A DNA stretch of 64,000 nt from positions 13,454,001-13,518,000 of the forward strand of contig JANJGN010000022.1 of assembly GCA_026770705.1 (NCBI GenBank). The letters are read 5' to 3'. Position numbers and translations under genes: made by a program. The notes under the pieces are model-generated. The model saw only the letters and a program-made list of their open reading frames with translations, made no database searches and had not been told where the DNA came from. Positions within the stretch are counted from its first letter, which is position 1. Each line of letters starts with the position of its first letter. This document shows positions 5,631-61,050 of this stretch, one piece after another. The stretch is from Isurus oxyrinchus (Eukaryota).

Positions 5631-5667
5631 AATTAATGTTTCAGGTTGGTGACCCTTCATCAGGACT
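5631..5667 (-). ncRNA. Minimal hammerhead ribozyme remnant in the Penelope pLTR (canonical CUGAUGA core)
   Basis: Minus strand reads AGTC-CTGATGA-AGGGTCACCAACCT-GAAACATT-AATT. Stems are decayed. Minimal hammerheads in Penelope pLTRs are an established feature. Confidence 0.6.
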
Positions 5668-6775
5668 GGGAAAAAAATTAGAGATGTAAGAGGTTTTGAA
5701 CAAGGGGTGGGTGGTACAAGGACAAAAAAGGTCTGTGACAAGGTGGAAGACAGGAGACATTCAATGACAGAAGAGTTAGTCCTACAGGGCAAAAGGAGAC
5801 AGTTTATTTCTACATTTCTTTCCTTGCTCTATATGCCTACACCAGGTGTGCTACTTTCTGAAAGCCCAAAAAACCCTGCAAGAGAACACCGAAAACACGC
5901 AAAGAAAGGAAAAATATAGGGGGCAGAGTTTATGGTCTGAAATTGTTGAACTCAATGATGAGTCTGGAAGGCTGTCAAGTGCCTAATCAGAAGACAAGGT
6001 TATGTTGAGTTTTACTGTAACAGTGCAGCAGGCCAAGGTCAGAGATATCAGTGTGAGAGCAAGATGGAGAAGAAAAATGACAGGATACCAGAAGCTAGGA
6101 TCATGTTTGCGAACTGAACAGAGGCTTTCCACAAAGCAGTCACCCAATCTGCATTTGGTCTCTCCAGTGTGGAGGGGACCATATTGTGAGCAGCAAATGC
6201 AGTAGAGTAAATTGAAAGGAGTACACAATCACTGCTTTACCTGGAAAGTATGTTGGGGAGAGAAGACAAAAGGGCAGGTGTTACATCTCCTGCATTTGTG
6301 TGAAAAGGTGCCATGGAAAAGGCATGGGTTGTTGGGATGATTGTGGAGTGGGCAAGGGTATCACAGAGGGGATAATCTCTTTGGAATGCTAAAAGGGGAG
6401 GGAAGGAGAAGGTGTTTGGTGGTGGCATCATGCTAAAAATGATCCATTGAATTCAGAAGCTGGTGAAGAGAAAGGGAACCATATGTGCAATAGTGTGGTG
6501 GTGGATACAGTTAAGGACCCTGCCAACTGTGTGTGCGTGTGTGTGTGATCCTTGGTGGAGGAAAAAAGACAACATCTCATAAATGCTAGTGTAGAAGGTT
6601 GCATCATTGGAACAGATGCACTGGAAACAGAGGAACTGGAAGAATAGAATGAGCCCCTACAGGGTGTACGGTGTGAGGAAGTATAATCATGGTAGCTGTG
6701 GGAGTCATTGGGCTTATATGAATATTAGTTGATAACCTATCACCAGAAATTGGGACAGAGAAGTCATGGAAAAAG

Positions 6776-7852: not shown

Positions 7853-8755
7853 AAGAGTTAGAGTCAGAGATGGGTCATGTGAAACTGAGGGAAGGGTGGA
7901 AATTGGAAGACAAGTTGAAGAAGTTTTTCAATTCATGGCAAGTACAAAACATGGCAGTGATGCAATCTATGTACTCGAAAAAGAGTAAGTAGAACTGGAA
8001 TAAGGAATGTTCCACATATTCCATAAAAAGCCAGGCATAGCTAGGAGCCATATAGATATCCATATCAACACCTTAGAGGAAGAGAGATGAATTAAAGGAG
8101 AAATTGTTCAATGACAGAGCATGTTCACCCAGGCGATGGTTATTGGAAACTGGTTAGGCCTCCACTGAAAGATGAAGTGGAGAGCCTTCAGACCATCCTG
8201 GTGGGGGAAAATGGAGATGTAGAGAGATTGGACATCCATGATGAGGAAATGGTTAGGGCCAGGAAATGGGAAGCTTTTAAAGCTAGAGGGCAACAGAAGA
8301 GTCATGGATGTAGGTGGGGAGAGACTGGACAAGGGGAGAAAAAAAATGGAGTCAAGGTAGGAAAAAATCAGTTCAGCGGGGCAGGAACAGGCTTAAAAGA
8401 TAGGTCTACTAGGGCAGTCCGGTTTATGGATCTTAGAAAGGACATAGAACTGAGCTGTACAGAACTGATAAACTAGGAGGTAAGAAGGTCACTGGAGGAG
8501 ATGAAGTCAGTGACTGTTATGGAAACAACAGCTTGACATTTGATGGTGGGCTCATGGTCAGAGGGAGGAAGGAGGAATCAAGGGAATCACTATATTAAGG
8601 GTTGTTTGCTAATGAAACAATTAAATTGGGTCCAAAACAATGATGCAAATAAGAAAAGCATAAGCAATTGTTTCTTAATTAGTTAAAGTCTAATTGAGAT
8701 TAGACAGGTAACATATGGTTGGAAAAGTACTATGCAATGAAAAATATATACATAC

Positions 8756-8961: not shown

Positions 8962-9084
8962 AAATAGAAACAGAAAATGCTATAAATGCTTAGCAGGTGT
9001 GATAGCATCTATGGAGAGAGAAACAGAGTTAAATGTTTCAGGTCCATGACTAATAACCTTTTTCACAGACCTGAAACATTAACA
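8962..9084. mobile_element. Old Penelope pLTR remnant with an inverted segment
   Basis: aaacagaaaatgct...tgtttcaggtc followed by the inverted gacctgaaacattaac. Confidence 0.55.
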
Positions 9085-21403: not shown

Positions 21404-21953
21404 TTAATTTCTAACACTAGGGTCCTCATCTGTGCCTGACCTAAGGTATAAATAACTAGTATTTAATAATCAAATAGAATTTAAGTAATATTTTAGATAT
21501 ACTTAAAAAAAAGACAACATGGAAGTCTCTCATCCGTCAAGTTCCTAGGCCCAACCATCTTCAGCTGCTTCATCAATGACCTTCCTTCAAAAGTACGGAT
21601 GTTCGCTGAGGTTTGCACAATGTTCCAAACCATTCGCAACTCCTCAAATACTGAAGCAGTCCATGTTCAAATGGAGCAGGACCTGGACAATATCCAGATT
21701 TGGGATGACAAGTGGCAAGTAATATTCACACTACACAGGTGCCAGGTAATAATCATCTCCAACAAGAGAAAATCTAACCATCGTCCCTTGACATTCAACG
21801 GCATTATCATCGCTAAATCCCCCACTATCAACATCCTAGGGGCTACCATAATATAAAAACAAAAAAAAAACTGCGGATGCTAGAAATCCAAAACAAAAAC
21901 AGAATTACCTGGAAAAACTCAGCAGGTCTGGCAGCATCGGCAGAGAAGAAAAG

Positions 21954-21992
21954 AGTTGACGTTTCGAGTCCTCATGACCCTTCGACAGAACT
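21954..21992 (-). ncRNA. Mirror copy of the hammerhead candidate on the strand transcribed by the host gene
   Basis: Exact reverse complement of 21999-22037 within the palindrome. Confidence 0.6.
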
Positions 21993-21998
21993 TGATCA

Positions 21999-22037
21999 AG
22001 TTCTGTCGAAGGGTCATGAGGACTCGAAACGTCAACT
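21999..22037 (+). ncRNA. Minimal type I hammerhead ribozyme candidate, variant core CUGUCGA
   Basis: AGTT-CTGTCGA-A-GGGTC-ATGAG-GACTC-GAAACGTC-AACT: stem I AGUU/AACU, stem II GGGUC/GACUC, GAAA, and a GUC triplet ending at 22033. Confidence 0.6.
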
Positions 22038-22596
22038 CTTTTCTTCTCCGCCGATGCTGCCAGACCTGCTGAGTTTTTCCAGGTAATTCTGTTTTTGTCC
22101 TAGCGGCTACCATTGGCCAGAAACTGAACTGGACTAGCCATCTAAATACTGTGGCTACAAGAGCAGAGCAGAGGCTAGGAATCCTATGGTGAGTAACTCA
22201 CCCTCCAAGCCTGTTGACCATTTACAAGGCACAAGTCAGGAGCGTGATGGAATACTCTCCACTTGCCTAGATGAGTGCAACTCCAACAACACTCAAGAAG
22301 CTGAACACCATTCAGGACAAAATAGCCTGCTTGATTGGCATCCCATTCACAAACATTCACTCCTTCCACCACTGATGCACAATGGCAGTGTGTACCTTCT
22401 GCAAGATGCACTGCAGGAAATCCCAAGGCTCCTTAGACAGCATCTTCCAAACCCACGACCACTACCATCTAGAAATACAAGGACAGCAGATGCATGGGAA
22501 CACGACCATCTGGAAATTCCCCTCCAAGCCACTCGCCATCCTGACTTGGGAATATATCACCATTCCTTCACTGTCATTAGGTCAAAATCCTCGAAA

Positions 22597-39731: not shown

Positions 39732-41936
39732 ATCACAAGTGGTTGCACGGGTGAACACATTTTGTTACTTAATAACCTGAAAATATATTCACTTTCGCTG
39801 AATAATGTGTAATGGTGTCTTTCAGCTTCATTTACAGGCTTCGCGAGTCCTTCCCCCGCATCCCCCCCACTAGCAGTTCAGCTACACGCAGCCGGGCCAT
39901 GAGTGATTTTGGAGGGAGAAGTGACCAAGTAATACTGTTTCCCTCGGCTTGGCAGGAGAGGTCCTGTGAAATGTATCTGTATATGCTCCCATGGGCCCCT
40001 TGGTCGAGGCTGATAGTGCTGCGCATGTCAGGTACTGCTGGCAATATTTGGCAATGTTTCTTCCCATTCCCTGCCACAACTAGCACCTGCCCATCCTTCC
40101 TTATATAGCTTCTCTCCCATGGCGGGTGATTCTGTGGTATATTTTCATGAGGTTCTGTTGTATAAAGCAGGGCACTACTACCTTTCCTCCCTTTCGCCAA
40201 ATTCCATCTGTGACTTTGTCTGTCTGCTGTTTTTCCCACTGACTTCTCTCTTCTCCCTCAACGTCTCTGTGTAAATCAGCCATATTCACCCCCTCAAGTC
40301 CAAATGCTACTGGGGCCACCGGGTACTCCGGACTGGTTGCCACAGCCTCCTTAGCTGCTGCATCCTCCCATTAGTTGCCCAATTCAATAAGGTCCACCAC
40401 CTTCTGGTGAGCCTTGACCTTTATTAGTGGTAGCTTCGCAGCCTCCACTAGTTCCTATCTATCGCTTCATGTTGTGTGCATCCTCCTCATGATGTAACGA
40501 CTCCAAGCAACCACATAATCATGCACTACCCCAAAAACACAAGTACTATCGGTATAAATATTAATATTAGCTCTTTTCCCATCCACCATATACAAGGCTC
40601 TTTTAATGCTATCAACTCCGCTACTTGGACTGAAAGGTCTCCTGTTAGTCTACCCCTATCCAAGATCCGTCCTTCTCCATCGACAACAGCCCATCCAGTA
40701 CAGGAGATCCCATCCACGTATCTGCAGGACCCAAGTATGAACATGTCTACATGTTCAATTCATTTTCCCTCAGAGTCCCCAGGCTTTCTTCATCTATCTC
40801 CCGCAGACAATTATGTTCTAGTTCAATCACATGTTCCTCCCTTCTAACAATAAGCCCTCTGCTGGATTGACCCTAGAGTCGCAAATTATTACGACTGATT
40901 TGTCCTTTGGTAATAGCATGACTTCCCATGCTGCTTGCCTACTATCTGACACAGTTCTCAGCTTCCTGTGTTGATCAATTCCACTATAGTGTGTTACATG
41001 TGCAATATCAATTCCCCAGTCATTACTATGGGTTCACACGCCTTCAGTGACCATGATGCTACGCATTGGGGCATCCCACTTTGCCTTGTTGAAAAGTACC
41101 CTACTGGCCTCATCCAATCTCCGTGTTCCTGAGCCAGTACTGTGCTGTAAAATCCTCCCTCACTTCTTTTCTGGTCCACTATCTCCTGCTGCTGTCTCAC
41201 TTCGGACCTCAATTCCCTAAGCAGTCTACACAACTCTACAATGCACCTTCTTATCCTATCTTTCAATGGCTCAGTACCTTCAATTCCAGTGGCTGTTCTC
41301 CCTGGGAGCTGCTTAACTCTGCACGTGATCATGGTGTTAATCCTGTGGTCTTACTTTTTGTAGCTCACAGGCACATTAATATAGTCAGTAATACATCTAT
41401 TTAGCCTTTTCCCAGTTTTTCCTTTACCTGTATCCATCTTGTGGTAAATTGTTGTTAAGTATTATTTCTCCTTACCCTTCAATTGCCTCAACTACAGATT
41501 CCTTATACTTACATGTTTAAGTTGTTTTTATTCCCTCCGACCATGACCATCCTAAGATTCTCTTGAGGTTAGTTTCTCTATTGCCTTAATCATTTAAAAT
41601 GTTTCCTTACTCTTTAGTCCATGTTAACCATTCCATGTCAACGGGGATCTGTGTCTCTAAAACTTTGCCATCTACTCCTGTGAGGTTCCAATGTCTCAGG
41701 TGATGGTCAGATTATCAAATTCAGTTCTCTTAAAACAGTTTGTATATTGTGTCTTCTTTCCCTAACTCTATCTCCTACACTTAATCATTCCTTCATACCA
41801 TTTTACACATGCAAGCTACCATCTTATCTCGGTTCAACTTGTCTGGAGAGACTTTACAATCCAATAAAGTAGTCTCATAACTTTTTTAAAACAGAAATCA
41901 AACATTTCTATTTGATTCCAAGCATCATGTTTTGCT

Positions 41937-42311
41937 AAAAACAAACCTTGAGTGCCCTACCATCCATTCTTAATTAGCACATTCGTTTAGATAATATCAC
42001 CAACTTTAACTTTAACACCTATGTGTTCTTTTGTACCATTGTCACTGACATCTTTTGATGATCTGCTTCTATCACTGACATCTTTTGATGATCTGCTTCT
42101 ATCACTGCTTGTTTGTCTACACAACCACCTCTCTCTCTCTCTATCTCTCCGCCCCCCACACACACACACACCTTAAACCAGCTTATATTTCAACTCTTTC
42201 TTGGACTCAATCAAGTTCTGTCGAAGGGTCATGAGGACTCGAAACGTCAACTCTTTTCTTCTCCGCCGATGCTGCCAGACCTGCTGAGTTTTTCCAGGTA
42301 ATTCTGTTTTT
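41937..42311 (+). mobile_element. Short Penelope pLTR insertion, same young family as 21850-22097
   Basis: Perfect 13-bp TSD ATCATGTTTTGCT at 41924-41936 and 42312-42324. The last ~100 nt are identical to the right arm of the palindrome. Internal 30-bp tandem duplication at 42042-42101. Confidence 0.85.
42214..42252 (+). ncRNA. Minimal hammerhead ribozyme candidate, variant core CUGUCGA
   Basis: Identical to 21999-22037; GUC triplet ends at 42248. Confidence 0.6.
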
Positions 42312-43930
42312 ATCATGTTTTGCTTCCTTATCTTCTCCTCAAACAACATTTTATTTTCTCAAAGTAACCCACTAGATTGTGTCTGATCTTCTTTCATTTT
42401 AGAATTACCCCAGATTCATTAAATCTGCCAAAATTTGGATTTCTGCCAAACTCTGTCAAGGTCTTGAGCTTAACCTTATATTTTGGGAACAAACTTACAC
42501 ATACAAAAAGCTGGCAGCATTTGAATTAGTGTCAATTGTTGTCAAACCTTTTAAAATAAAAATTGCTTTTTGAGGACTTTATCAGGTATCAAATGTCAAA
42601 TTTTTAAACTTTGTAAGAACTATAATTTATACTATTCTCATGTGTATAAATTTGTATCCAGATTAAAAATCCCACATGTTTCTCAACACATATTCTTTAT
42701 CTTGGATAGCATCCCAGTTATTCAAAAGTAGCCTGTTAAATTACACTGTACTTTCCACATTTCAAGATTGTCCCAAATTCAAACAGTGCTGTGGAGATGC
42801 AGATTTCCTTTCCTATTTAATTCATCTCTTCAAAAGAAACCCCTTTTTATCGATAGGAAGCACCCAGATTGTGTGTTTATGCCTTTTGGTTTTCCTAGAA
42901 TCCTTTTACATTTCAGGTAGTTTTTTTTTTGCAAAGGCCGATTCATTTCAAACAAAGGAAAGCCCTGTTTTATCTTTACAATACATTGAAATTGCGATTT
43001 TGCCGGAAATCTCAACTCGAACCTTATACTCAGACCATTGGAATGTATGAGTATACTTTTCCTTTAATCTAATCTGAGGCTTTTGACTCTAAAGTGCTGA
43101 ACTCCACACACAATGACAACTTAGGAAAGAAAACACATTAAAGCTCACAAACAAATGCTTCCTTGCAAAGAAACACACATATGTATATAAAGGTATGTAT
43201 TTCCATTCTCATAACATTGAACTTAATGATTTAAAACTTTCATACTCTAAACAAAACTTCATGTAGCAGTCGGGGGGACGGTGGGAAATAAAGGGACGTT
43301 GGAGGCTTCACCTACAGGGACAATCAAACCAACTGAAGCTCACATTTCCTCTGCTCCTGTCTGCCACTGCTCATTAACCCCTTCTAGGGATACCCCTCTC
43401 TCCTTCTCTCTCTCCAGCATAAACAGCTCTTGTGACTTAGATCAATTCCTTTTTAAGTAATTTACCAAAAATTCAGTGGGGCACGTTTCAGGTCCCACTC
43501 ATCCTTCTGCACTGTCTTAATAATTTTCTGCTATAAGCATCGTGATGGAGCCCTCCAACCCTCAGTCAAGGTCAATGGTGCTCTCTTTCTCCTCGTTCCC
43601 TGATTGCATTTTTTTTTTTATTCATTCTCCGCACGGATGCAACCAGTGTGGTCTTCTATTACAGCCTATACGTGGATACCACCAGCATGGATTTGGCTAT
43701 CTTTCAGCCCCTGCATGGATACCACCAGTGCGGATTTGGCTACGGCCCCTGCGTGGATTTGACCTTTCGTTAGCGACCTCTCTTCTCAGCGCTTCCTGTA
43801 CTGAGTTCTCCTTTAGATTCTTTGATACTCGACCAGACCATCTTCGGGTCGGCTTACTACACTAACAATGGGTGGTAAATATACTATACTCACCCGTTTT
43901 GCAGTGCGGCTCCAATGGTCCGAGATGAGT

Positions 43931-60879: not shown

Positions 60880-61050
60880 GCATAAAAACAGAAAAGGCAT
60901 CATCTGTGGTGAGAAACGTAGTTAATGCTTCGTCAGAGGAAAACTCATCCACCTGAAACTTAACTTTGTTTCTCCTACCAGACCTGCTGAATAATTTCAG
61001 CAATCTCTGTTTTTAATTCAGATGTCCAACATCCAGAGTATTTTTTTCTT
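60880..61050. mobile_element. Old Penelope pLTR inverted remnant
   Basis: aaaaacagaaaagg...gttaatg followed by cctgaaacttaact...cagacctgctgaa...tctgtttttaattcagatgtccaacatc. Confidence 0.5.

Follow-up and report, generated by a model that had tools for sequence, protein, structure and literature searches.

Why does an abundant retrotransposon carry a hammerhead motif in which the near-invariant A at core position 6 (A6) has been replaced by U (U6)? This question is raised by positions 21999-22037 of a 64,000-nucleotide stretch of Isurus oxyrinchus DNA (contig JANJGN010000022.1, positions 13,454,001 to 13,518,000), which as a whole is referred to here as the window. The host element is an abundant Neptune-type Penelope-like element (PLE), and the motif is the hammerhead motif of its pseudo-long terminal repeats (pLTRs). 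The role of hammerheads in PLEs is disputed, processing, dispensability and parasitism all having been proposed. Our comparison of genomic copies indicates that U6 arose once from ancestors with the canonical core CUGAUGA and was kept through about seven successive subfamilies. The reading that we put forward, with about even confidence, is that the A6U change was fixed once and likely left the ribozyme slow and down-tuned, with selection still acting on its fold.

The motif and its host element

The motif and the two insertions that carry it are laid out below. Numbering follows the minimal hammerhead (min-HHR) consensus of PMC4209133.

21999-22037, plus strand: hammerhead-derived motif of minimal type I layout
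21999-22002 with 22034-22037, plus strand: stem I of this motif
22003-22009, plus strand: core of this motif, with U6 at 22006
22010, plus strand: bulged A of this motif
22011-22015 with 22021-22025, plus strand: stem II of this motif
22026-22029, plus strand: GAAA of this motif
22029-22032, plus strand: palindromic ACGU, followed by C17 at 22033
21954-21992, minus strand: second identical motif, in the inverted arm of the fold-back insertion
21850-22097, no strand assigned: fold-back mini insertion of the PLE, 248 bp, arms joining at 21995/21996
21834-21849, plus strand: left copy of the target-site duplication flanking the fold-back, 16 bp with 1 mismatch
22098-22113, plus strand: right copy of this target-site duplication
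41937-42311, plus strand: second independent insertion, 5'-truncated, 375 bp, with 3' untranslated region (UTR), TATA-like block, motif and short tail but no open reading frame (ORF)
41924-41936 and 42312-42324, plus strand: 13-bp target-site duplication of the second insertion
42214-42252, plus strand: third identical motif, U6 at 42221

Direct comparison confirmed the original prediction that the 39-mer is identical, letter for letter, at 21999-22037 (+), 21954-21992 (-) and 42214-42252 (+), that core position 6 is U at each site (22006, 21985 and 42221), and that C17 lies at 22033. The view that two independent insertions are involved held as well, one being a fold-back with two motif copies as its arms and the other the separate 375-bp insertion. 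The fold-back has a longer tail on its left arm and a shorter one on its right arm, and it interrupts an older dispersed repeat that we take to be CR1/L2-like.

When the motif is compared with the min-HHR consensus, six of the seven core positions C3 U4 G5 A6 N7 G8 A9 fit and position 6 carries U instead of A; no alternative core register fits. The remaining hallmarks are present: G12 A13 A14 A15.1 and U16.1-H17, stems I and II that are complementary and kept along the lineage, G10.1-C11.1, the bulged base after A9, a palindromic 15.1-16.1 (ACGU) that permits a stem III in the dimer, and a location in the pLTR (3 of 3 in the tandem locus L051). We therefore file the motif as a hammerhead-derived variant and not as a min-HHR, because it lacks A6. 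An Rfam scan gave no hammerhead match at E≤1, and the only other matches, of microRNA models to the palindrome, did not reach the gathering scores of those models.

Small hammerhead variants that cleave as dimers, with an architecture associated with PLEs, were reportedly described by Lunse, Weinberg and Breaker in 2017. The min-HHRs of metazoan PLEs, for which weak dimer cleavage and a compensatory U3-A8 core variant have been described (PMC4209133), resemble the present motif in pLTR position, short stem I, bulged base after A9, G10.1-C11.1, palindromic 15.2-16.2, lack of stem III, and massive dispersal as solo copies and opposite-strand pairs. They differ from it at position 6, which here is U, or C in a side branch. 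No position-6 variant of a PLE hammerhead was found in the literature searched, which consisted mostly of titles and the beginnings of abstracts, nor in the parts examined of bioRxiv 10.64898/2026.07.22.740005, PMC6155905 and PMC11014351. In layout and descent the present motif follows the PLE min-HHRs.

The host element is best represented by L051 (C1:460,000-469,999), a 3.34-kb tandem with units that are 99.5% identical, U6 in all three pLTRs and an intact ORF of 918 amino acids with reverse transcriptase (RT) and GIY-YIG domains. RVT_1 scores above its cut-off and the C-terminal GIY-YIG just under its own (20.0 bits against 22.6). The translation has a CX4CxxC linker between RT and endonuclease (EN), within the CX2-5CxxC type that characterises Neptune elements and also occurs in Nematis (PMC8557442), and the features of the predicted protein fit the Neptune type described there. 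Partial-tandem pLTRs, inverted 5'-truncated copies and an optional tail of 30-40 bp are all present, as in EN+ PLEs. Since the ATG lies about 140 nt 3' of the cut site, position 6 is non-coding. Coding constraint on it was rejected because the main ORF is that far downstream, and ATGs in or near the motif open frames of merely 18 and 9 codons. A possible GT...AG intron lies between tail and ATG at L010:1570-1668, where a donor-like GGTA replaces the GCTA or GCAA of most A6 groups, close to the A6U transition. Four probable RNA runs yielded contigs that span motif and ORF, in which ends, strand and level are not visible and which could be DNA; they neither support nor refute this intron. A run labelled as coral metagenome (X20) held 41% of the sampled element words, probably through animal contamination.

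Abundance, ancestry and age of U6

The repeats of the window look shark-like, and copy counts were taken over the whole 4.98-Gb genome. The exact U6 29-mer has 61,428 copies and the reversed 29-mer used as a control none, so that the motif is far beyond chance. With A6 and any base at N7, the same 29-mer has 141 copies, and with C6 or G6 1,787, the first 100 of which comprise 85 CUGCUGA, 9 CUGCCGA, 1 CUGCAGA and 5 with G6 (about 90 G6 copies by extrapolation). A pattern blind to the seven core letters gave 82,547 matches, and among the first 100 of these 99 carry U6, one C6 and none A6. These variant counts and the core-agnostic sample identify U6 as the state of the lineage. The sample upholds the idea that U6 was inherited and did not result from post-insertion decay; an A6 consensus among young copies, named beforehand as the finding that would overturn it, was looked for and did not appear. 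A6 revertants are about as rare as copies with G6, a comparable transversion, and were never amplified.

C6-U7 is far more frequent than recurrent mutation would allow, and we regard it as a side branch that was amplified. It has roughly 1,500 exact copies of CUGCUGA in several upstream backgrounds (e.g. L102, L111) and accounts for 7 of the first 100 matches of the older-flank search, described below, whose anchor excludes A6 ancestors. Its core matches the Mn2+-preferring core known from a phage. A G5A form (CUAUUGA) was seen 3 times among the first 100 core-agnostic matches, in differing backgrounds (L080, L081); were it an amplified branch, it would be an argument against catalysis.

At position 6, contigs of a second organism (organism B) had no letter besides U at a frequency of 2% or more, a count in which A6 copies are possibly under-sampled and almost solely the second-youngest upstream variant is represented. 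Since these contigs also carry U6, the change is older than the split of the two organisms. Raw DNA reads of three further organisms (C-E) gave 4, 0 and 0 matching reads, too few for comparison.

The subfamily series was obtained from searches anchored on older flanks, one anchor excluding A6 ancestors by design; an older-flank search admitting A6 found 4,778 A6 copies. The series starts with CUGAUGA in the background GAGUC/AUACG/GUU, followed by CUGUUGA in the unchanged background, so that position 6 is the sole real motif difference at the A6-to-U6 transition. GGGUC/AUUCG appeared later, then AUGAG/GUC, then several upstream variants and finally CUGUCGA. From 271 loci we extracted 372 distinct copies, of which 71 reach the ORF and 61 include enough of it for a tree; motif rules of our own assigned copies to groups of 4-21 in the ORF analysis and of 7-40 in that of the motif. 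In the ORF tree of the 61 copies, rooted on the distant element of the window, all U6 copies group in a single clade (UFBoot 93) nested in CUGAUGA copies, with A6 copies at the base, as expected for descent from a canonical min-HHR. Two A6 revertants are nested within the U6 clade.

Three rows of the window belong to that outgroup:

5631-5667, minus strand: decayed A6 motif of a distant older PLE family
5916-6771, minus strand: ORF remnant of that family
7860-8577, minus strand: ORF remnant of that family

The original prediction had contrasted the young copies with the motif at 5631-5667 as an older canonical form. Its core is indeed CUGAUGA, but its stems are decayed, and because the ORF remnants beside it are only 64-70% identical to the young unit, it represents a distant family and not the direct ancestor. 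More decayed tails of older PLE copies occur at 60975-61015 and 8989-9009(-).

Contrary to what had been proposed, U6 is not confined to a recently active subfamily. Divergence from the group majority at non-CpG sites is 5.0% for A6 copies, 4.4% for the oldest U6 copies and 0.8% for the youngest. The trunk since U6 has accumulated a dS of 0.19 and a dN of 0.035 over 287 codons. Judged from these values, U6 is not young and has been carried by elements under purifying selection.

Constraint and folding of the motif

After U6 the 39-mer acquired six trunk substitutions: U to C at N7, three in loop 2, U to C at H17, and one A-U to G-U change in stem II. An apparent seventh, at G16.2 in group G1 (n=7), was not counted: G is present in the neighbouring group on either side, so we attribute it to CpG decay. 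Changes affected 4 of the 8 free sites and 1 of the 30 core or stem sites (Fisher p=0.004), and the Poisson probability of at most one change in these 30 is 0.013-0.022 at the measured dS. The confinement of the changes to positions that a hammerhead tolerates (N7, loop 2, H17 and one wobble) argues that the fold is still constrained.

This bears on the idea that the motif is dead and drifting, U6 having hitchhiked with a successful source element while the rest has not yet decayed. About 6 of the 30 constrained sites would be expected to have changed at this dS, and 27 trunk changes fell in the adjoining 25-nt spacer between the TATA-like block and stem I and 5 in the 16-nt linker. Drift is therefore disfavoured as an explanation of the retained motif, and we consider it very improbable, even though the ten other core bases taken alone are not significantly conserved (P=0.12-0.15), insertion requires no cleavage (in vitro in PMC11167929, and judging from the insertion ends below), and hammerheads have been suggested simply to parasitise PLEs (PMC8557442).

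The spacer itself (22-25 nt; e.g. window 42192-42213 and L029:1472-1496) has a change count about five times dS, and it ended with a 10-nt copy of the 3' strand of the motif's own stem II plus GAAA. Possible causes of this turnover are an arms race with host silencing, the tuning of the promoter and template switching.

A constrained motif need not be a cutting one. What has been retained may be a structural or DNA element at the 5' end of the transcript, for instance an initiator or downstream promoter element, a binding site of the element's protein or a translation element, the hammerhead-like conservation of the motif being a by-product. The likely start site coincides with the beginning of the motif, 29-32 nt 3' of an invariant TATA-like block, and the downstream promoter element of the internal promoter of Drosophila virilis Penelope contains ACGT (PMC2377424). 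Naiad elements are abundant, at very high copy numbers, without canonical hammerheads (PMC8557442), C6 has been amplified as well (the 85 CUGCUGA noted above), and single mutants of the CUGA turn scored low in a mutational scan (PMC9901934). However, the changes obey catalytic rules, in that H17 stayed H, N7 was free and the stem II pair was kept, a modest argument given that four free sites changed; and a pure DNA element would need neither both stems nor the ACGU palindrome. We regard a non-cutting role as unlikely, though a serious contender.

The opposite possibility is that U6 is fully tolerated and cuts about as well as A6, in a dimer or on the element's protein, because it does away with a rival hairpin in which the core pairs with the cleavage triplet. 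This hairpin is indeed the predicted fold of A6 revertants that occur naturally in the young background: for natural 39-mers of the present background, the predicted gap by which the lowest-energy fold exceeds the hammerhead-like one in stability amounts to 1.4 kcal/mol with U6-C7 and to 5.4 kcal/mol with A6-C7. The rest of the motif stayed constrained over a dS of 0.19, and A6 is not a catalytic acid or base but stacks on G5 (PMC11300833). However, relief from misfolding does not explain the origin of U6, because the predicted gap was merely 1.4 in the A6 ancestors in which it arose and 2.4 in the first U6 forms. Moreover, in one ribozyme at 0.3 mM, the A6C change cost more than 10,000-fold in comparison with Mn2+ (PMC7151607), and A6 is present in 44 of 44 examined alignment rows of 56 metazoan min-HHRs, though the descriptor used there required A6 (PMC4209133). 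Full tolerance therefore seems distinctly improbable. The predicted misfold could nevertheless entrench U6 once established, and would confound a restored-A6 control in the present background.

A natural parallel is the A6C hammerhead of phage Bcep176, which shares a position-6 pyrimidine in an otherwise intact core. Its activity is lowered, not abolished (kobs <0.1/min; PMC3088659), being slow in Mg2+ and rescued by Mn2+ (PMC7151607). Whereas Bcep176 is a single phage sequence with measured activity, low in Mg2+ and good in Mn2+, U6 here is a sequence state fixed in more than 60,000 retrotransposon copies of an animal genome, and the A6 ancestor from which it arose can be traced.

Insertion ends and the proposed use of a slowed ribozyme

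Two further blocks of the window are relevant to how the element is copied:

42174-42191, plus strand: invariant block with TATA-like box, about 30 nt 5' of stem I, likely the core promoter
22038-22097, plus strand: linker and invariant tail block 3' of the motif, with no trunk change in the 32-nt tail block; by analogy with PMC11167929, likely the site of the internal start of reverse transcription

Insertion ends were determined in 93 copies from the first 100 of the 61,428 exact matches. In 38 of the 93 the element ends 1-10 nt upstream of C3, with a mode at 4 nt, the first base of stem I, and an inverted partner accompanies 27 of these 38; of the remaining copies, 8 stop 11-35 nt upstream and 47 extend beyond that. 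This hot spot follows the invariant TATA-like box at a distance of 29-32 nt, and a second mode occurs 3 nt further upstream in young copies, whose spacer is 3 nt longer. We take transcription to begin at the first base of stem I, with mini and fold-back insertions being copied from the uncut 5' end of the RNA. A permuted second hammerhead using an upstream GGACUCGAAA look-alike of the youngest subfamily was rejected as the cause of the hot spot, because A6 ancestors without GGACUCGAAA have it too. Fold-backs with a junction at most 10 nt upstream of the core make up 27 of the 93 young copies, an arrangement also seen at 21850-22097 of the window; they are long perfect hairpins and could feed small-RNA pathways.

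Of 30 loci, 1 starts at the cut site. Since insertions cross this site instead of beginning there, their templates were apparently uncut or re-ligated. A filter for starts at the cut site was passed by 230 copies genome-wide and one for a control position by 114, but we do not regard this about two-fold excess as evidence of cleavage: the control filter requires two non-A bases and one CpG more, and many matches fit microhomology. The same kind of filter over 35 positions was passed by 3,902 copies, about 111 per position. The insertion ends support the proposed spread from templates uncut at the motif, but not as a property special to U6, since the A6 ancestors behave alike (1 start at the cut site among 30 loci). 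Of the first 100 A6 ancestors listed, about 47 end just upstream of the core, as judged by eye and with a filter that drops some long copies.

A comparable arrangement is found in PAc, a Poseidon element of Anolis, whose hammerhead needs protein in order to cut and is not required for insertion in vitro (PMC11167929). Both elements have two tail lengths and an internal reverse-transcription start downstream of the hammerhead, and in both uncut RNA appears to be the insertion template, with no reads found that end at the cut site. In contrast, the PAc hammerhead overlaps the start of the ORF, whereas the present motif lies in the 5' UTR, about 140 nt before the ATG, of an element with a Neptune-type CX4CxxC linker.

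On our reading of a slowed ribozyme, the RNA would start at the first base of stem I, and reverse transcription would begin within the tail, some 65-100 nt 3' of the cut site, so that the ORF could be copied only by passing through the motif. Rapid cleavage would part the ORF from the priming site and would thus oppose full-length insertion unless the ends were re-ligated, whereas weak cutting would be costless for insertion and may help it. Residual cleavage of a minority of transcripts, probably protein-assisted or dimer-dependent, would keep the remaining core under selection; it could serve decapping for translation or the processing of tandem read-through RNA. Weak type I hammerheads have been linked to translation in RNA viruses (PMC13725137). 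In keeping with a slowed ribozyme, position-6 changes lower activity and need not abolish it (PMC3088659, PMC7151607), and mutants of the CUGA turn scored low (PMC9901934). A slowed ribozyme that still cuts a minority of the RNA would fit the fixation of U6, the non-return of A6 and the retained fold.

Several points, besides the non-significant conservation of the ten core bases, speak against this reading. The subfamily majorities rest on 7-40 copies each, a few of them misassigned, and the larger copy numbers of U6 subfamilies are confounded by age. No rate was found for A6U. Two blocks that are not hammerheads are as invariant as the motif, with 0 changes over the 18 nt of the TATA-like block and 0 over the 32 nt of the tail block, so that the constraint on the motif could stem from promoter function or protein binding. 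In the 39-mer, stem II is predicted at 0.98 and stem I at 0.40, whereas RNAfold in 100-nt context gave at most 0.01 for stem I and 0.02-0.23 for stem II in U6 copies; stem I is weakly populated for the A6 ancestors too, and RNAfold gave no support to a longer stem I in the young subfamily. Among the predicted dimers, the double hammerhead (-10.1 kcal/mol) is not the one of lowest energy (-18.2 kcal/mol). Finally, because A6 ancestors likewise lack cut-site junctions, the junctions do not show that U6 changed cleavage, and re-ligated circles would appear uncut in DNA.

A bolder version, which we consider rather unlikely, is that the lineage was selected to detune its own ribozyme. A6U would then be a switch that permits cutting only when the element's protein or Mn2+ licenses it, dividing the transcripts into uncut insertion templates and cut, translated RNAs, and C7 and C17 would have entrenched U6 by making reversion a misfolding change. 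If this is true, the dated series from A6 to U6 to C6 would make the purpose of PLE hammerheads directly testable.

Within a single lineage the genome offers a natural allelic series that runs from canonical ancestors through the fixation of a change at an almost invariant core position to later changes at tolerated sites only, and that includes intact source elements; this series could separate selection on catalysis from selection on the fold. In such a genome, a survey based on CUGANGA would overlook a hammerhead-derived family of very high abundance. The outcome would be either a widened hammerhead consensus or a ribozyme retained for a purpose other than cutting.
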